This document shows positions 13,620 to 31,188 of a stretch of 31,872 nt of DNA, in pieces; position 1 is the stretch's first letter; every line of letters begins with the position of its first letter. The notes beneath the pieces are model-generated. The model had not been told where the DNA came from. It did not search any database and was given only the letters and a program-made list of their open reading frames with translations. The translations under genes were made by a program, and so were the position numbers. Origin of the DNA: a virus (taxonomy: Duplodnaviria; Heunggongvirae; Uroviricota; Caudoviricetes); IMG/VR virus record IMGVR_UViG_3300045988_180666; one strand, written 5' to 3'.

Positions 13620-13854
13620 TGATACTTTATAGGCATAAAAAAAGCCCACGGCGTGAAGCCTAGGCGAAACAGTCGCCATCGCTGAGTAGATTACTACTAT
13701 CTTATAACCGATGGCAAAAGTACGAAGAATAATTGGAACCGCCAAAAAAAAAGCGAGAAATTTTGAAATAAATGACTTTTTTATGTTTTAGAGCATAAAA
13801 CAAGGGGGTGAGGAACGAAAAAGCCCCGGATGCTCACGCACCCGAGGCTGACAG

Positions 13855-14247
13855 TTATTTTTGGAAATAAACTTTTAAAGGGATTGAATTCTCCACATTG
13901 CCAATTTTGAAAGAGAACTGATAGTTGCCCTCTGCAGGGAACTGGAGGTCGGAGAACTCAAAGATGAAGTTGCTGAAGAGAAACTCATCTGAAGGGTGTG
14001 GCTCAATCTTGGAATTGATGGGCTGGCCAAGAATCATCTTGCCAGTGCTCATCTCTGTAACCTCTGCCGAGAACTCTTGCTGAAGTTTGCTTTCCTCGCT
14101 GTTCATCTTAACTCTCGCTACCATGAAGAGGTTGCTCTTAGGCAGCGGTGCTTTTCTTACCACATAGTGGTCAAAAGTGCCCACGATGGTAAGTTTGCCG
14201 TCATTATCTTGTGCAAAGTCACACAATGCAAGAATATCTATGTTCAT
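13855..14247 (-). CDS. Hypothetical protein (130 aa), cargo block gene 3
   Basis: Lower GC than the phage core. ATGA-overlapped with gene 2. No recognisable domain. Confidence 0.5.
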   Translation of the reverse strand: MNIDILALCDFAQDNDGKLTIVGTFDHYVVRKAPLPKSNLFMVARVKMNSEESKLQQEFSAEVTEMSTGKMILGQPINSKIEPHPSDEFLFSNFIFEFSDLQFPAEGNYQFSFKIGNVENSIPLKVYFQK

Positions 14248-14684
14248 TTTATATGTCCTTTAATGTTAGACTCGATAGCCGAGTGTTTGAAAAGTTTTTT
14301 ATAATTGTCGAATGAATATTTGAGTTTGCTCACCGTGCGCTTGTTTGTGCTCACTAGGTTGGCTCCATGTCTGCCAGAGATGCCTTCCTTGGTATTGAAC
14401 TTCAGAGAATTTCTTTTGGAGTCAACCCAAAGCCTGATGGCATCGCCTTGTATCTTGTCACCCACATTGCCATGGACGTTGAGATCTTCTCGTATTTTCT
14501 TGTCCTCTTCGTTGAGCTCAAGAGCTTCGGTGATTTCTACGGAACTATTTCGGTCTAGTTCGTATAATGTCATCTTTTTGCCCGTGATAGGTTCCTCTTT
14601 GAGTCCCTTCCACTCAGCCCTTCTGGCAATGACATCAGCTTTTTTGCCCTCTATGATTTCACCTTCTTTGATATATATAGCCAT
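14244..14684 (-). CDS. Hypothetical basic protein (146 aa), cargo block gene 2
   Basis: Lys-rich. 1-nt overlap with gene 1. Confidence 0.5.
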   Translation of the reverse strand: MAIYIKEGEIIEGKKADVIARRAEWKGLKEEPITGKKMTLYELDRNSSVEITEALELNEEDKKIREDLNVHGNVGDKIQGDAIRLWVDSKRNSLKFNTKEGISGRHGANLVSTNKRTVSKLKYSFDNYKKLFKHSAIESNIKGHIK

Positions 14685-15112
14685 TATTGGATACTTTTTT
14701 GCATTGATTTTTCACTGAAAGAGAATACCTCAGCCATATCATCAGGCGAGGTGATGCTCATGAGCGATGGGCTGACCTCAAGAGCCACCTCAATGTCTTC
14801 AATGGAAGCATCTTTATCTTGTTTGATGATGTACTTATCCTCATGCTCTTCAATCTCTTTATCAAACTCTTCTTCGGTAATATTGCCGTCAAGCATTTCG
14901 CAATATAGTTTGAAGTAGTTGCGCTCACGTGTGCGGTTGTTAACGGCACGAGTCATCAACTCCTTGAGTCTGTCGGCAGTACTGATGTTGAAAAAGTTAG
15001 CCTTATTGGTAACACCAGCGAATGCAACCTTGCCAGTACCTTTGTCTTGTATAGCCACAACAGGGCTGCCATCAGTTTGGTATGTTGTATATATAGTCGT
15101 TGTATTGCTCAT
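14684..15112 (-). CDS. Hypothetical protein with a strongly acidic C-terminal half (142 aa), cargo block gene 1
   Basis: The C-terminus EEEFDKEIEEHEDKYIIKQDKDASIEDIEVALEVSPSLMSITSPDDMAEVFSF is very acidic. Its own TATCTTTG promoter lies about 30 nt upstream. Confidence 0.5.
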   Translation of the reverse strand: MSNTTTIYTTYQTDGSPVVAIQDKGTGKVAFAGVTNKANFFNISTADRLKELMTRAVNNRTRERNYFKLYCEMLDGNITEEEFDKEIEEHEDKYIIKQDKDASIEDIEVALEVSPSLMSITSPDDMAEVFSFSEKSMQKSIQ

Positions 15113-15139
15113 AATTCACATCCTGTTTATATTAACACG

Positions 15140-15149
15140 GTGCAAAGAT
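15140..15149 (-). promoter_or_regulatory. -7 box TATCTTTGCA for the three-gene cargo operon
   Basis: Plus strand tgcaaagata at 15140-15149; minus strand TATCTTTG. Same extended motif as the other phage promoters. Confidence 0.4.
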
Positions 15150-15265
15150 ACGGATATTTTTTGTAAATCGCAAATTTAATGATAAATTTAACAACAAAAA
15201 TTGCAATAAAGATTGGAAAATGGTATATAAAAAATGCTCGACCGCTTTTTGGCTCTTGCCAGACG

Positions 15266-15321
15266 CTTTCGCCGCAGGCGAAAATTTTTGGAAAATGAGG
15301 GGGAAGGTTTTAGCCTTCCCC
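15266..15321. terminator. Pair of adjacent hairpins downstream of radC: TTTCGCC-GCA-GGCGAAA+TTTTT (plus sense) and GGGGAAGG-TTTTAG-CCTTCCCC
   Basis: A 7-bp stem followed by ATTTTT on the plus strand, then an 8-bp GC-rich stem 20 nt beyond the RadC stop. Together they look like a bidirectional terminator module. Confidence 0.4.
15277..15297 (+). repeat. Direct repeat copy 1 (GGCGAAAATTTTTGGAAAATG). Copy 2 is at 16777-16797, with a degenerate third copy at 16734-16754.
   Basis: 19/21 identity between 15277-15297 and 16777-16797. The two copies bracket the radC/PRTase cassette. Confidence 0.6.
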
Positions 15322-15340
15322 TTACCTTATTATATATATA

Positions 15341-16024
15341 TTATAGCTTTCCTTTGTCGTGGTAGCTGTAGAAGCCATCCTCAGCCAAGATGATATGGTC
15401 CATCAAGAAAAGTCTCATCACCTCGCACGCCTTGGCTATCTTCTGCGTGAGCATATCGTCCGCCTTGCTCGGCTGCGTGCTGTTCGATGGGTGGTTGTGT
15501 GCCACGGCGATGATGGTTGCATTGTTGAGCACGGCTTCTTTCATTATCAGTCGAACGTCCACCGCTGTCTCGGTGATGCCTCCCTCGCTGAGCTTGGTGC
15601 ACTTTATCAGCCTAAAGTTTTGGTTCATCAGCACTACCCAAAAGCCCTCTGTCTCATTGCAGCCTATCATTGGGCGAAGATAGTTGTAGAGTGCCAGGCT
15701 GCTGCCTAGGTCGGTGTTTCTCGCTACCTTTTCCATTTGGTAGCGTCTGCCTAGCTCGATGGCTGCCTGTAGGGCTATCGCCTTGCAGTCTCCAATTCCT
15801 GGTACCACTTCCAGGTCTTCTATTCTCGCCTTGCCGATGTTGCGAAGCGAGTTGCCCATGATGTTATAAATCTGTCGTGCCTGCTCTTGGCTGTCCTTGG
15901 TACCTGCCCCTCTGTTGATTACCAAAGAAATCAAGTCAACGTTGGTAAGGGTGTCGAAACCTTGGTTATAGGCTCTGTACTGCGGTCTCTCCTCCATACA
16001 AAGATTGTTATAATTTTGTCTCAT
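15341..16024 (-). CDS. radC: RadC-like JAB/MPN-domain protein (UPF0758 family)
   Basis: N-terminal helix-hairpin-helix (LEVVPGIGDCKAIALQAAIELG). C-terminal JAB motif VAHNHPSNSTQPSKADDMLTQKI (HNHPSG..PS..D signature). Confidence 0.7.
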   Translation of the reverse strand: MRQNYNNLCMEERPQYRAYNQGFDTLTNVDLISLVINRGAGTKDSQEQARQIYNIMGNSLRNIGKARIEDLEVVPGIGDCKAIALQAAIELGRRYQMEKVARNTDLGSSLALYNYLRPMIGCNETEGFWVVLMNQNFRLIKCTKLSEGGITETAVDVRLIMKEAVLNNATIIAVAHNHPSNSTQPSKADDMLTQKIAKACEVMRLFLMDHIILAEDGFYSYHDKGKL

Positions 16025-16039
16025 ATCTTTTGTTATTTG

Positions 16040-16564
16040 TTAGTTATACATTCTCTTTGTTCTCGCTAGGAACATCGCTCCCATCACTTGTGCGCCACAT
16101 TCGGCTAGCTCGTTGGCGAACTCTCGGGCGGTCGCTCCGCTCGTCACCACGTCGTCGAAGATGATGACTTTCTTTCCGCTGAAGTACTCTCTATCGAGTG
16201 CCACTCTGTAGTCGAAGCTCTCACACACTCTGTCTGTGCTGAAGTGCTTGGCTGTGCGCTCTCCATAGATGGAAATGTGCTCGTTTCCGTTCTGTACCTT
16301 TGCGCCTTGGCTCACCTTTTGGGCGAAGCGAGAAAAGCGCTTGGTGTACTTCTTTGAGTTGGCTGCTGGAGCGCAAACCATCACGAAGTCGCTGGCTTTG
16401 TCGCCATAGGTGTTGACGAAAGAGCTGACCACCATATCGGCAGCTGCGTCTGTCGCCCACTGCTTTCCATCCTTGAAGGCAAAGATGAAGTTTCTCACTT
16501 GCTCTGCTTGTGCTGAGCGGTCGAAACGCTTGGAGCTGTACTCGTAATAATTGAAAGTTTTCAT
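16040..16564 (-). CDS. ComF/GntX-like type I phosphoribosyltransferase-domain protein (174 aa, no zinc finger)
   Basis: PRPP-binding motif VIIFDDVVTSGATA near the C-terminus. The FVMVCAPAANSKK...RFSRFAQ arrangement resembles the ComFC core. There is a 15-nt gap to radC. Confidence 0.6.
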   Translation of the reverse strand: MKTFNYYEYSSKRFDRSAQAEQVRNFIFAFKDGKQWATDAAADMVVSSFVNTYGDKASDFVMVCAPAANSKKYTKRFSRFAQKVSQGAKVQNGNEHISIYGERTAKHFSTDRVCESFDYRVALDREYFSGKKVIIFDDVVTSGATAREFANELAECGAQVMGAMFLARTKRMYN

Positions 16565-17359
16565 ACGCTTAAAATTTTTATTCTAGCCAGAGGGAGGAAG
16601 GAGCTTTTTTATTTGAACTCGTCTTTGCCTGCCCGTCTGAGAGTTTTTTTTATTCTGTCCGTCGGTCGTTTTTGTCGCTTTTTACGGTGCGATGCAGACG
16701 AGCGGAGAAGAGGTATGAAAGCCAAGGAATTTTGCAAAAAGTTTATGGAAAACCGTCATCTCTGATTGCGGAAGGCTGCCGAAAAGTTTTTGGAAAATAG
16801 ATTTATCGGTACTTGGTGCATGCCGTCCGCCGTACCTTTGCACCCGAAAAAGAGATAATGACCGATGGATAACCGATAAAGGGAAAAGCTCTCGGACAGG
16901 AAAAGCGGGCAAAGAAAAGGCTCTGCCTTACCTTGGTGGTTAAGCCTTAGCGACGTTTGAGCGCCATCACGGTCACCACCGCTTGAAAATTCGCAAATTT
17001 TAACCCTAGCGTATGAAATGAAAGATGGAAAATTTGCGTCATCAAAAACACCATGTTTTTCAGACTTCAGGAGGAAAAACATACCTTGGAGCGATGAAAT
17101 CGCAGCATTTGGCATGCTTCGACCCCGAGGTTGAAGATGCCGAATGTGTCGTTTTGCGACAGGTTTTCCACACCCACGGATTGGAAAACCCCGATTTTAT
17201 CGTGGTTTTAGGGATTCAAAGGGAAAATAATTCCCCTTTGTCGGCGATAGCACCCCCCACCGCCCTACGCCCGAGCGCGCCTTCCGCCCCCTTGGAAAAG
17301 ACGGAATATGTAAAAGACCGTTAACGTTTTTGTAGGAATGTAAAAAGCCAAAAGGCACG
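16565..17359. other. Non-coding region, purine-rich on the plus strand, with multiple inverted repeats. It contains no plausible ORF.
   Basis: Only short, low-complexity ORFs occur on either strand. It contains a 10-bp IR CGCAAATTTT/AAAATTTGCG (16997-17039) and a 9-bp IR GGTTTTCCA/TGGAAAACC (17165-17193). It also carries repeat copies 2 and 3 and recurring GGAAAA(C/T) motifs. Confidence 0.4.
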
Positions 17360-17392
17360 AAAAAAGGGAACACGCTTCGCAGCGCACTCCCC
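17360..17392 (-). terminator. Rho-independent terminator downstream of terL
   Basis: Minus-strand RNA GGGAGUGCGC-UGCGAA-GCGUGUUCCC gives a 10-bp stem including 3 G-U pairs, followed by UUUUUU. It lies about 70 nt after the terL stop. Confidence 0.55.
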
Positions 17393-17462
17393 TTATCGGC
17401 GGTCAAGCAAGAATGCCAGCCACCTAACTTATATAAGAATCGTACTATCTAAAGAAATCAAA

Positions 17463-19064
17463 CTATAGCATGGAACCCGTGGCGATGTAGCCATCAGCCT
17501 GAGGGTATTTCTCCATGCCAATCATGAGCGTGTCGTAGGCATCGGAGCCATCGGTGCGAGCCTCCAACTTATCCTCCTCGGTCTCAGCCAGCTTCTCGCC
17601 TCGCTTATCCTTCTTGCCGTTGTAGACCCCGGCCAGGCGGATGGAGATGAGCAGGTCTTCGTTGTTCTCGCTGTTGATCATCGAGCGATGCTCAGCCTTG
17701 CCGAGGAACATGCGGTTGAGCAGAAGCATCTTTTCGAGATGTCCCATCGGGTTGCCCAGATAGACCTCGTTGACATACCAGCCATGGTCGGTGAGGTAGT
17801 CGGTGATGAAGGTATGGAAGTCATCGTTCATCAGGGCGTAGTTGTTGCCCACGAAGGTGGAGTCGTAGTAGAAGTTGACCTCTTTGCACCGATGGTACTC
17901 ATAGTACTGCATGAACTTGTCGAGCAGGGCTGGCAGCTTCTCCTCATACTTCACGAAGATGCTCTTGAGGCAGCGTGCCTCGCCCCGCAGGTTGTCTTGT
18001 CCGACGGCTATCCAGTTGATGAGGGCGTTGGCATCGAAGGCGATGCAGAGCGGACGGTCGGGGTCAACGTCGGCATCCATTCTGGAATCTACATGCTTGA
18101 GCTTGTCGATGTCGTAGCCCAAGCCATCGAGGTAGGCGAGGTTGGGCGCCGTGTATAGGTTGGCATCCCTGAGGTTGGAGTAGAAGCCATCGAGCGAGAT
18201 GGAAGGTCGCTTGCACATGATGGAGGTCTGGAAGGTGAGGGCAGGGAGGTCTCGCTTCATCTGCTTGATGAACTCCATGCCGAGCACCTCGATGTTATAG
18301 ACCGATGAGTACTCTTTATAGAAGAGTGCCTTGGAGCGCAGTTGCGCCAGGAGCTGACCAATCTCTCGGAGTCGGCGCTGGGCATAGCCTGAGACATGGC
18401 CCGAGGTCTTGATGCGGTTGCGTATGTCATACTCCTCTACCACGAGCGAGGCGATGGCGTCGATGAGCAGCTGGTCGCAGTCTTTCTTGTAGTTGAGGAA
18501 CCAGGAGCCCTTCTTGGTCACGGGCATATCAGAGGTGATGAGCATGCCATGGTGGTAGTAGTGCTGGCCGAAGAGGTTGACGTTGCCTCGATTGGCAGGG
18601 AAGGTCTCGTCTTTGAGCTGTTCGAAGTTGATGAACTTCGCCTCGTCGATGTCGAGGTAGTCGAGCGAGAGGGAGTTGGAGGTACCCTTGCGGTCTTGCG
18701 AGATGATGGTACCGATGGAGCCGTTATAGAAAGAGATGGTGTTCTCCCAGTTGCTGGGCGGTATGACCGGGTCGGGCCATCCCAGTTTTTTGGGAGGCTT
18801 GACCCCGATGAGATAATGCTTGCCCCGGTGGAAGCCCCATCGCTCCCAGTGCTGAAGCATCGACGGTATGGTGTTGGTGAGGCATCGCTTGGTGTTGGCG
18901 GATACGAAGCCGCCGTTGCTGCCAGGCATGCGCTGCATGTTGCGCAGGTTGAAGGTGGCGTGGAGAATGCTCTTGCCGATGCCTCGACCGCCCACGACCA
19001 CGTTGTCGCGGGCGGAGATGAGGTTGACCTCCATCTGGGCTGGGTTGAGATATTGATCTATCAT
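17463..19064 (-). CDS. terL: Terminase large subunit
   Basis: Walker A GGRGIGKS near the N-terminus and Walker B LDYLDIDEAKF. Size is 533 aa. The start overlaps the upstream gene by 4 nt. Confidence 0.8.
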   Translation of the reverse strand: MIDQYLNPAQMEVNLISARDNVVVGGRGIGKSILHATFNLRNMQRMPGSNGGFVSANTKRCLTNTIPSMLQHWERWGFHRGKHYLIGVKPPKKLGWPDPVIPPSNWENTISFYNGSIGTIISQDRKGTSNSLSLDYLDIDEAKFINFEQLKDETFPANRGNVNLFGQHYYHHGMLITSDMPVTKKGSWFLNYKKDCDQLLIDAIASLVVEEYDIRNRIKTSGHVSGYAQRRLREIGQLLAQLRSKALFYKEYSSVYNIEVLGMEFIKQMKRDLPALTFQTSIMCKRPSISLDGFYSNLRDANLYTAPNLAYLDGLGYDIDKLKHVDSRMDADVDPDRPLCIAFDANALINWIAVGQDNLRGEARCLKSIFVKYEEKLPALLDKFMQYYEYHRCKEVNFYYDSTFVGNNYALMNDDFHTFITDYLTDHGWYVNEVYLGNPMGHLEKMLLLNRMFLGKAEHRSMINSENNEDLLISIRLAGVYNGKKDKRGEKLAETEEDKLEARTDGSDAYDTLMIGMEKYPQADGYIATGSML

Positions 19065-29902: not shown

Positions 29903-30280
29903 ATGTTTAATGGTCAGATAATCAGAAAGTTAATGTCGGATGCTGGCTTAACTAAAAAAGAGTTTGAAAGACGTATGTTCGGTAGTAAATCGACCGACCT
30001 CAACCATTTGGAAAAAGCGAAGAATCTTCGCAGTGACACTCTCGAACGTCTGCGTGATGTGTTGAAGTGCTCTATGGATGACTTCTTTACAGCACCCTCA
30101 TGGGCTGAGAACGGAAAGGGGACAGTCGTAGGCTCTAACAATGTGCTGTCAACAGTAGCCATCGGCAACGAAGTGATGGAAGCCCAATATCTCAAGGAGT
30201 TGCTCTTGGAGAAGGACAAACGCATCAGCACTTTGGAAAATTATATCAAGCTTCTGGAGACTAACTTAAATAAGGACTAA
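29903..30280 (+). CDS. XRE-family HTH transcriptional repressor (CI-like)
   Basis: The N-terminus LTKKEFERRMFGSKSTDLNHLEKAKNLRSDTLERLRDVL is HTH_XRE-like. The C-terminus has a coiled coil. It is divergent from the cro-like gene. Confidence 0.6.
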   Translation: MFNGQIIRKLMSDAGLTKKEFERRMFGSKSTDLNHLEKAKNLRSDTLERLRDVLKCSMDDFFTAPSWAENGKGTVVGSNNVLSTVAIGNEVMEAQYLKELLLEKDKRISTLENYIKLLETNLNKD

Positions 30281-30510
30281 TACGAAACATAATTCGTAAG
30301 ATGAATCCTTATATATAATAAGGTGTATAAAATATATCGTATAATCTCAGCAGTGATATCCAACTCGTTAGTCCTGCCGCCGCAACTAGTTTCGGGTAAG
30401 AAGTTGGTAAACAACATCTTATCCGATTTCTGTTTTTCTATTGGAACTATATCAGAACGAAATACTTTCCATTCCACATTCCTTTGATATTCAATATTTA
30501 ACACTTATTA

Positions 30511-30566
30511 TTTGCGTATATTGAATAAAAGTGCTACTTTTGCACATTGATAATTTATTGTGCAAC
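30511..30566 (+). promoter_or_regulatory. TetR gene promoter and operator: -33 TTTG, -7 TACTTTTG, 26-bp palindrome
   Basis: -33 TTTG at 30511-30514, a 20-nt spacer, then -7 TACTTTTG at 30535-30542. The palindrome TTGCACA-N12-TGTGCAA (30540-30565) overlaps the predicted transcription start. Confidence 0.55.
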
Positions 30567-30591
30567 CAAATCTCGATGGAGGTACTTCGTT

Positions 30592-31188
30592 ATGTCAATA
30601 TCAAAAACTAGACAGAAATTAGTGGATGTCGCTCGACAACTCTTTGCAAAGAACGGAATCGCCAATACAACGATGAATGACATCGCTGTGGCTTCTGGTA
30701 AGGGACGTCGCACGCTTTATACCTATTTTAGTCGTAAGGAGGACGTCTATTACGCAGTGATAGAGTCGGAATTGGAGCGCCTTTCTGACAAACTTGACGA
30801 AGTGGCCGCCAGTAAGATTCGACCTCAAGACAAAATCATCGAATTGATTTATACCCACTTGAGCATGATCAAGGAGACTGTTGTCAGAAATGGAAATCTG
30901 AGAGCTGAGTTCTTCCGCAATATTTGGATGGTGGAAAAGGCTCGCAAGAATTTCGATGAAGACGAGATAGAACTTCTCAGGAAGGTTTATTCCGAGGGCA
31001 AGGCGGACGGCGAGTTTGACATCGATAATGTAGATTTGGTGGCTGACATCACACACTATTGCATCAAAGGTCTCGAAGTTCCGTTTATCTATGGGCGATT
31101 GGGACATGGCTTGAACGTGGAGTCGAGCAAACCGCTGGTTGCCAAGGTTGTCTATGGTGCTTTAGGAAAGTCGGGAATGAAGTTGTAA
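30592..31188 (+). CDS. TetR/AcrR-family transcriptional regulator
   Basis: The N-terminus RQKLVDVARQLFAKNGIANTTMNDIAVASGKGRRTLYTYF is a classic TetR HTH. ATG at 30592. Confidence 0.75.
   Translation: MSISKTRQKLVDVARQLFAKNGIANTTMNDIAVASGKGRRTLYTYFSRKEDVYYAVIESELERLSDKLDEVAASKIRPQDKIIELIYTHLSMIKETVVRNGNLRAEFFRNIWMVEKARKNFDEDEIELLRKVYSEGKADGEFDIDNVDLVADITHYCIKGLEVPFIYGRLGHGLNVESSKPLVAKVVYGALGKSGMKL

Follow-up and report, generated by a model that had tools for sequence, protein, structure and literature searches.

Downstream of terL in the 31,872-nucleotide (nt) stretch of tailed-phage DNA recorded in IMG/VR as IMGVR_UViG_3300045988_180666 (the window) lies a minus-strand cassette of two genes, one for a ComF-like phosphoribosyltransferase (PRTase; this gene and its product are called PRT below) and one for a RadC protein, preceded by a long imperfect hairpin. 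On balance, we favor the view that the cassette is a leading-region-type module with an Frpo-like single-strand promoter, lodged in a phage accessory hotspot after terL. The case is built on the anatomy and variability of the cassette, the covariation and strand bias of the hairpin, the geometry of the promoter boxes within it, and the folds and families of the two proteins. The elements that carry the argument are listed here, with protein lengths in amino acids (aa).

16622..16915, plus strand: long imperfect hairpin of ~294 nt (5' arm 16622-16765, 3' arm 16770-16915), the proposed Frpo-like single-strand promoter.
16770..16780, plus strand: apex sequence GGAAGGCTGCC, nearly invariant in the hairpin alignment A4 and the anchor for scans of sequence collections.
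16813..16816, plus strand: -33-like box CTTG in the 3' arm, invariant in A4 and fully paired with the invariant CAAG at 16723-16726 (helix 6).
16833..16840, plus strand: -7 box TACCTTTG in the 3' arm, partly in an internal loop, corresponding to the Bacteroidota sigma-A consensus TAnnTTTG.
16565..16621, minus strand: leader AAAAAGCTC...CCTCTG..AGAATAAA, conserved in blocks, from the hairpin base to the PRT start codon.
16040..16564, minus strand: PRT, a ComF/ShosT-like PRTase of 174 aa without a zinc finger.
15341..16024, minus strand: RadC, 227 aa, with an N-terminal HhH-type UPF0758_N domain and a JAB domain.

The 330 nt upstream of PRT align in long conserved blocks even though the PRT proteins compared are only ~50% identical. 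A profile built from this leader alignment also hits the opposite strand at the corresponding places (e.g. E=1e-11), and the element is thus a long imperfect palindrome. When the whole 5.3-kb region was compared with INPHARED by blastn, the one match covered 126 nt of its noncoding leader upstream of PRT and was to a contig that encodes an ArdC-like protein. Pairing between the arms is apparent in alignment A4, which holds 13 diverse copies found by homology or context. The 47 consensus pairs are 90.4% paired in these copies, versus 39-50% after a shift of the partners by 1-3 columns, and compensatory changes on both sides occur in 25 pairs, versus 7-15 in the shifted controls; none of 500 shuffles reached any of the observed covariation measures.

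The two strands differ in their propensity to fold. Modeled as DNA, the plus strand reaches -52.1 kcal/mol (z=-4.45) and the minus strand -36 kcal/mol (z=-1.3), and RNAalifold finds 47 pairs (-13.8) in the template orientation compared with 21 pairs (-5.1) in the sense orientation. Of 26 non-redundant copies drawn from two collections, 24 are more stable as the template strand (Wilcoxon p=4e-5). These calculations indicate that it is the plus strand, the template of PRT-radC, that folds; the Frpo/ssi promoters discussed below are likewise characterized by a long imperfect hairpin that one particular strand forms. A structure in the sense-strand RNA leader was rejected because of its fold score (z=-1.3). 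An invertible promoter between the short inverted repeats GTCATTATCTCT and AGAGATGAC was likewise discarded, since the whole element is one hairpin and these repeats are not kept at locus L001.

The sigma-A boxes of Bacteroidota are TTTG and TAnnTTTG, the latter at -12 to -5 (PMC9723704). In the window hairpin, CTTG and TACCTTTG are separated by 16 nt, and GTAnnTTnG (16832-16840) is invariant in A4; across the hairpin family the spacing is 16-19 nt and the form is CTTG followed by TAnnTT[T/C]G. Six columns of the -7 box are unpaired in the consensus structure and the predicted fold of the window copy agrees, a feature shared with the unpaired box of Frpo/ssi. TAnnTTTG is enriched in the window (37 observed, 12 expected), with sense-strand copies just upstream of most minus-strand genes (7119, 12482, 13715, 15143, 24077, 25218 and 28934). 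Between the terL stop codon and the PRT ATG there is no sense-strand copy, and the sole TAnnTTTG is the inverted one in the hairpin. The boxes of the hairpin face terL in duplex DNA, away from PRT-radC, and it is with the folded plus strand as the PRT-radC template that they take the orientation seen in Frpo/ssi, as judged by geometry only. We count the lack of a sense-strand box before PRT in favor of a promoter that would face PRT-radC in the folded plus strand and nowhere else. The predicted start lies near 16845 on the 3' arm, equivalent to ~16685 on the template arm, and would give a leader of ~120 nt. A plain rightward antisense promoter at 16833 was rejected, because its transcript would lack the 5' arm and the covariation would be left unexplained. 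Separately, we observed within the PRT coding region (16294-16306, plus strand) a 13-mer, GTACCTTTGCGCC, that almost matches the hairpin's -7 box region (16832-16844); it may be a coding-sequence coincidence or a weak antisense promoter.

We suggest a model in which ~15216-16983 would constitute a self-contained operon comprising, in minus-strand order, the hairpin, a ~120-nt leader, the PRTase, RadC and a terminator. Once single-stranded, the plus strand would fold into the hairpin, and the 3' arm would serve as the non-template strand that provides the -33 (CTTG) and -7 (TACCTTTG) boxes in the duplex stem, the -7 box being partly pre-melted there. RNA polymerase would read the 5' arm as template from ~16685, moving from apex to base, and would exit into PRT and radC. 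Expression would in this way be coupled to a single-stranded state that could arise at entry, during replication (as the displaced strand), by cruciform extrusion, or when the DNA is resected from a terminus. The products, a PRTase that binds phosphoribosyl pyrophosphate (PRPP) and is related to ComFC and the ShosT toxin, and RadC, a protein of the HhH plus metallo-hydrolase type, would act on incoming or single-stranded DNA (ssDNA) or on nucleotide pools in the interest of the element. Gain and loss of the cassette as a unit would proceed by illegitimate or short-homology events, and not through the 21-nt repeats described further below. Transcription from ssDNA, the timing of single-strandedness and the biochemical roles of the products are the steps of this model that we infer.

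The model is patterned on Frpo/ssi, the single-strand DNA promoters that conjugative plasmids of the F-like and IncI types have in their leading region (PMC11541004). Common to these and to the hairpin described here are a long imperfect hairpin in the template strand, sigma boxes in the stem that face the downstream genes, and a -10-equivalent that is partly mismatched. The likeness extends to a position upstream of early establishment or anti-defense genes, to several co-oriented copies per element, and to the proximity of ssb- and ardC-type genes. In contrast to Frpo/ssi, however, the boxes are of the Bacteroidota sigma-A type (TTTG/TAnnTTTG) instead of -35/-10, and the window element resides in a tailed double-stranded DNA (dsDNA) phage beside terL and is known from sequence alone. 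Given the different promoter consensus, homology of the hairpin to F-plasmid Frpo is unlikely. The single-strand promoter architecture of Frpo/ssi was reportedly described by Masai and Arai in 1997. Among other folded DNAs, transcription at the ssoA/ssoU sites of rolling-circle plasmids stops in the loop and leaves a short primer RNA, and the early promoters of phage N4 are 5-7 bp hairpins read by the virion polymerase. Both involve a strand-specific folded DNA recognized by RNA polymerase, as we propose for the hairpin, whereas the window hairpin has a ~95-bp stem and host sigma-A boxes that read outwards into genes.

The hairpin belongs to a family that extends well beyond this phage. Pattern scans of viral and metagenome contigs, followed by a profile filter, gave 253 hairpin places, at which the first downstream open reading frame (ORF) falls into about a dozen families with a constant spacing between hairpin and start codon. 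These include proteins of 161 aa (61 places), PRT (43), 156 aa (25), 64 aa (20), 119 aa (18) and 193 aa with a weak DUF1281_C match (14), as well as a ParB-like protein, a PcfJ operon and others; most of the small proteins have no match in Pfam or NCBIfam. One hairpin region encodes a Mob_Pre relaxase, two ArdC-N/MPTase polyvalent proteins, an SSB and a peptidoglycan hydrolase. Where a locus has two copies, both hairpins are on the same strand (18 of 18 loci, which are not mutually independent). PRT-family genes lacking RadC are also found within hairpin-driven gene strings of non-phage contexts. In a group of distant phages (L095, L119-L126), PRT is preceded by a long hairpin of the template strand that is unrelated in sequence and carries TAnnTT[T/C]G in its 3' arm. 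We regard the small families preceded by the hairpin as candidates for early or establishment genes in mobile elements of Bacteroidales. Copies of the family can be viewed at L210:7749-8834, L001:3893-5118 and many loci in L191-L390, often as two co-oriented copies ~1.5 kb apart, and the second hairpin type at L095:7606-8110, L119:5621-6010, L121 and L124-L126.

Several considerations weigh against an Frpo-like promoter. We infer transcription from ssDNA from geometry alone, and the genome of a tailed dsDNA phage need not enter the cell as ssDNA. Read-through from terL could provide a route of expression from duplex DNA. The likeness to F-plasmid Frpo is one of layout and not of sequence comparison, and the likeness to a leading region follows from co-orientation and from the proximity of Mob_Pre, ArdC-N and SSB genes, not from an oriT or the position of the transferred strand. 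The excess of G.T over A.C cells under template-strand pairing (42 versus 10), which also points to the template strand as the one that folds, is due in part to the prediction of the structure on that same strand. Finally, the boxes formed part of the scan pattern, and every scanned copy therefore has them by construction; the 13 copies of A4 and the strand-bias tests are the only data independent of that pattern.

A broader idea, which we put forward as a tentative and rather doubtful one, is that tailed phages of Prevotella/Segatella sense their own single-stranded genome through a folded-ssDNA promoter for the host sigma factor, and thereby switch on a ComFC-like/RadC module for ssDNA handling or counter-defense. 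The triggers might be, for example, resection by host nucleases, displaced-strand replication, or an unrecognized route of ssDNA transfer. The same class of promoter would then be the Bacteroidota equivalent of Frpo and define an early leading-region regulon, of about a dozen small families, in their conjugative elements. Single-strand promoters explain how conjugative plasmids express anti-defense genes before becoming double-stranded. To our knowledge they come so far essentially from proteobacterial plasmids and have been recognized by similarity to Frpo or by -35/-10 boxes, and our search of a limited body of literature for such promoters in Bacteroidota found no report; nor did we find one for tailed phages. 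If there is indeed a Bacteroidota version, a covariance model would offer a handle on the early gene sets of abundant conjugative elements of gut Bacteroidales, and about a dozen unannotated families would be flagged as candidate establishment or anti-defense genes. It would also be the first such promoter within a tailed phage, implying an important single-stranded state in the phage life cycle, and it would tie the ComF-like PRTase and RadC families to that state, so that both become open to experiment. Should the hairpin prove not to be a promoter, an ordinary variable moron remains.

The two proteins have recognizable relatives. PRT carries a PRPP loop, VIIFDDVVTSGAT, matches Pfam Pribosyltran (E=4.5e-7), and has the type I PRTase fold with a PRPP-binding loop that is typical of ComF/ComFC. 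An AlphaFold model built from a 40-sequence diverse alignment reaches a predicted local distance difference test (pLDDT) score of 94; the diverse set was used in place of 7 close sequences, which gave a pLDDT of only 57. The sequence-only reading of this DNA had called the PRTase ComF-like, and both the fold and the best sequence family agree: comF (TIGR00201) is the top NCBIfam model, at 31.5 bits against a cut-off of 233.55. ComFC binds and handles incoming ssDNA (PMC9005727). In contrast to ComFC (e.g. that of H. pylori, PDB 7p0h), PRT scores far below the cut-off and begins directly at the PRTase core, without the cysteine cluster of the N-terminal four-cysteine zinc finger, and it is borne by a phage, with no ComFA, ComEC or DprA context.

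A word-indexed search for homologues returned close relatives alone, and a profile search gave a PRT family of 1544 cluster representatives. In many of these, PRT is the C-terminal domain of a protein of 500-1000 aa. Neither Pfam nor PHROGs has a match to the N-terminal regions of these large fusions, and a MuF fusion was not confirmed. Residues Y9, K31, P66, R76, H107, D137, D138 and G157 are invariant across 40 diverse members. The DD motif (D137/D138), R76, which corresponds to a conserved Arg after strand 2 that is common to ComFC, and the existence of solo and C-terminally fused forms place PRT in the mobile-element PRTase clade described by Iyer, Burroughs, Anand, de Souza and Aravind (Iyer et al., 2017; PMC5512222). 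In that work, PRTase and RadC domains, both solo and fused within polyvalent proteins, are counted among the proteins that phages and conjugative elements use at the entry stage; the PRTase is proposed to function in nucleotide production or sensing at DNA entry, and RadC is predicted to process nucleic acids as an enzyme (Iyer et al., 2017; PMC5512222). A fixed PRT-RadC pair after terL and a hairpin promoter are not described there. The arrangement is new, and the protein families and their occurrence in mobile elements were already known. The statement of the sequence-only reading that such a pair is not a standard phage function is overstated, since the domains are known (PMC5512222) and the order terL-PRT-RadC is kept across a wide clade of Prevotella/Segatella phages.

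The RadC assignment is straightforward. The protein matches Pfam PF04002 (E=1.2e-35, 122.5 bits versus a gathering threshold of 22.1), its JAB metal motif HxHx7Sx2D is intact as HNHPSNSTQPSKAD, and it resembles RadC/YeeS-type JAB proteins (PF04002) over its full length, including UPF0758_N and the metal motif, with no differences at the domain level. The biochemical role of the pair would follow from these families. A role in conflict or DNA processing is plausible, in line with the anti-defense or DNA-processing function that had been proposed from the sequence.

A serious rival for the protein pair, albeit one that we consider unlikely, is that PRT and RadC are a toxin-antitoxin-like or defense pair of a temperate phage, serving abortive infection or superinfection exclusion in the manner of ShosTA/PsyrTA. 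PRT would then be a PRPP-dependent toxin, and RadC a neutralizer of the DNA-repair type that takes the place of DprA. The PRTase and pyrophosphatase activities of ShosT are coupled, and a DprA-like ssDNA-binding partner neutralizes it (PMC11961720, PMC12961424). In PADLOC, PRT does match ShosT (E=1.6e-9) and PsyrT (E=9e-9), although the ShosT score is weak (36 bits) and the models for both lack a curated cut-off. PRT is 174 aa long, versus ~430 or ~690 for ShosT/PsyrT, has RadC as its neighbor where those have a DprA-like antitoxin, and is carried by a phage, not located in a host defense island. The closest relatives of PRT are solo proteins or C-terminal domains of large mobile-element proteins, and its occurrence without RadC in hairpin-driven relaxase-type elements and in distant phages means that the pairing is not obligatory. 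A toxin/neutralizer pair would leave the hairpin promoter unexplained, although the two are compatible.

Somewhat less probable again is the possibility that the hairpin acts at a different level, as an sso/ssi-like single-strand origin or primer-RNA site for synthesis of the lagging strand, as a folded recombination site like attC, or as an RNA structure (an RNase III site, leader or antisense RNA). Tandem hairpin-gene-hairpin-gene arrays do look like cassette arrays, and a hairpin can be formed by both strands. In sso and Frpo elements, too, RNA polymerase works on a folded strand, and these elements may serve to prime DNA synthesis; such use and the possible priming are reportedly covered by the 1997 study of Masai and Arai and by the ssoA/ssoU work. 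The fixed distance to the start codon, the constant orientation and the gene-facing boxes fit a promoter for the adjoining gene instead. The strand bias disfavors a sense-RNA structure, and an antisense RNA would require a conserved promoter within unrelated downstream genes. The hairpin ends, TCTTTGCCTGCC...GGCGGGCAAAGA, lack an attC-type R''/R' core (RYYYAAC...GTTRRRY, or GTTRRRY/RYYYAAC in the other order), and no integrase gene was found nearby or adjoining the cassette. A priming role could coexist with a promoter role.

We give still less credence to the simplest account, an ordinary moron expressed by read-through or from an unrecognized duplex promoter, in which the inverted repeat is a palindrome bound by a regulatory protein. 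Consistent with such an account, there is no strong terminator from terL to the hairpin, only a weak one at 16927..16908, and the apex is highly conserved, as expected of a binding site. Compensatory changes over ~47 pairs and ~290 nt, together with the strand bias, would be unexpected for a protein-binding site in duplex DNA, and the invariant positions coincide with sigma-A boxes.

We then considered the cassette as a mobile unit. The features that bear on its boundaries, and on the repeats near its ends, are these.

17463..19064, minus strand: terL, the upstream neighbor of PRT-radC.
15216..16983, minus strand: maximal insert, defined against the cassette-less relatives L046, L065, L056 and L077.
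15247-16876, minus strand: minimal insert, defined against L090.
15300..15321, minus strand: intrinsic hairpin terminator of radC, whose T-tract extends into repeat copy 1 and whose position is kept in close relatives.
15267..15283, strand unassigned: TTTCGCC-GCA-GGCGAAA, a small conserved hairpin located at the cassette's 3' end.
15277..15297, plus strand: repeat copy 1, made up of the T-tract of the radC terminator and half of the small hairpin.
16778..16799, plus strand: repeat copy 2, which forms the 3' arm of the long hairpin's top stem (helix 8).
16738..16753, plus strand: repeat copy 3, degenerate, the 5' arm of the same top stem.

PRT and radC are both real genes, separated by 15 nt on the minus strand, and form the tight operon that had been recognized from the sequence. 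Comparison of 72 loci with a related TerL, of which ~55 assessable ones are close relatives (TerL >=92%, that is, at least 92% identical), places PRT and RadC at this locus in 33 of the ~55. In six relatives terL is joined directly to a homologue of the next gene (g142), and elsewhere the cargo is a HicA/HicB-like pair, a pair of 179 aa and 123 aa, a DUF5053 protein or a 338-aa protein; L042 retains only the 3' end of radC. Homology breaks at 16984|15215 in L046, L065, L056 and L077, at 16877|15246 in L090 and at 16931|15436 in L042. The "empty" site of L090 still has the outer 3' hairpin arm and is thus a deletion product, and the different end points in different lineages point to illegitimate deletions. 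The pair is also old: PRT followed by RadC occurs in phages with only 52% TerL identity and in 16 of 16 Prevotella/Segatella genome loci with PRT at least 36% identical, and in both sets it lies just downstream of terL wherever enough DNA is available. PRT-RadC is therefore old in this phage clade and dispensable, neither a universal core pair nor a one-off acquisition. In other words, the sequence-only reading was right to see a discrete module, which is dispensable, lies at a variable locus and is present in 33 of ~55 relatives and otherwise absent, replaced or decayed; the outcome that would have spoken against it, universally conserved core genes without variability at the locus, is not what we find.

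The means of exchange envisaged in that reading fare differently. It held that 21-nt direct repeats bracket the cassette, with a second copy at 16777 that is 19/21 identical and a degenerate third copy at 16734. The similarity exists, but the second copy lies at 16778-16799 and requires a 1-nt insertion or deletion to reach 19/21 (CGAAAA-TTTTTGGAAAAT versus CGAAAAGTTTTTGGAAAAT); the degenerate copy also exists, but at 16738-16753. Without gaps, the 21-mer at 15277-15297 has no second match at three or fewer mismatches anywhere in the window. Local alignment of the two flanks scores 15.5, a value reached by 1 of 1000 dinucleotide shuffles, and the similarity in the window genome thus exceeds chance. 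In relatives with diverged cassettes, the flanks score 9-13.5, compared with a shuffle mean of 9.5. The copies do not mark the boundaries, as they are internal to the insert, with the 3' copy ~30-60 nt and the 5' copy ~78-185 nt from the edges set by the cassette-less relatives, whose spacers have no copy of the repeat core remaining. Because the top stem is a quasi-palindromic A5-G/C-T5 (A5/T5) sequence, the arms of the hairpin also resemble direct repeats. The hairpin and its proposed promoter, the unusual feature of the locus, had escaped the sequence-only reading.

Insertion or exchange by site-specific or short-homology recombination between the 21-nt repeats, which the shared CGAAAA(G)TTTTTGGAAAAT of the flanks (1/1000 shuffles) and the variable locus might have suggested, is accordingly very improbable and largely refuted: the repeats are internal, the cassette-less relatives keep no copy, all three independent junction types (16984|15215, 16877|15246 and 16931|15436) avoid them, the flank similarity is lost in diverged cassettes, each copy is accounted for as a hairpin arm or terminator tail, and no recombinase gene adjoins the cassette.

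Just beyond the maximal insert there is a different direct repeat, of 20 nt and 75% identical (15202-15221 and 17014-17033). We rejected it as a target duplication, since both copies are also present, in diverged form, in the cassette-less L046.

More generally, ~13800-16984 and the same place in L042-L090 form a hypervariable accessory island between terL and the next conserved genes. Within the island, a canonical Bacteroidota promoter (15139-15153, minus strand; TTTG, 20 nt, TATCTTTG) precedes the next gene at 14684..15112, and this promoter region also precedes different genes in L044, L055 and L062; the shared promoter sequence may provide homology for module shuffling. On either strand, the fold of the spacer at 16930-17462 is better than those of shuffled sequences (z=-4.7 and -3.0). 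The spacer has no Rfam match and contains at ~17252-17313 (minus strand) a conserved element of the form ACATATTCCG-(variable hairpin)-GCGTAGGGCGGTGGGGGG. At 79 of 82 places in the collected loci the two motifs are found as a pair, always downstream of terL, and the element lies between terL and the cassette in the window and after radC in L095 and L119-L126. It could be a noncoding RNA, a packaging site or a protein-binding site.

The wider surroundings are those of a phage. The minus strand holds every gene between 11 and 29 kb of the window, a ClpP-type (ClpP-like) prohead protease is encoded upstream of terL, and the gap of ~900 nt between terL and PRT has no credible ORF. The proteins encoded downstream of the cassette, which the sequence-only reading took for virion proteins, have no informative family matches, a search for tRNA and tmRNA genes found none, and Rfam gave no relevant match at the gathering threshold or at E<=5. 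An identical PRT gene is present in a Segatella copri metagenome-assembled genome and in many ~44-kb IMG/VR contigs, which identifies the element as a Segatella/Prevotella phage or prophage. Close to the window's right end (29903-31188, plus strand) are a Cro/CI-type helix-turn-helix gene and a TetR-family gene on the opposite strand, and related contigs stop ~14 kb upstream of PRT; this region might represent a lysogeny module or the point where phage and host DNA join.

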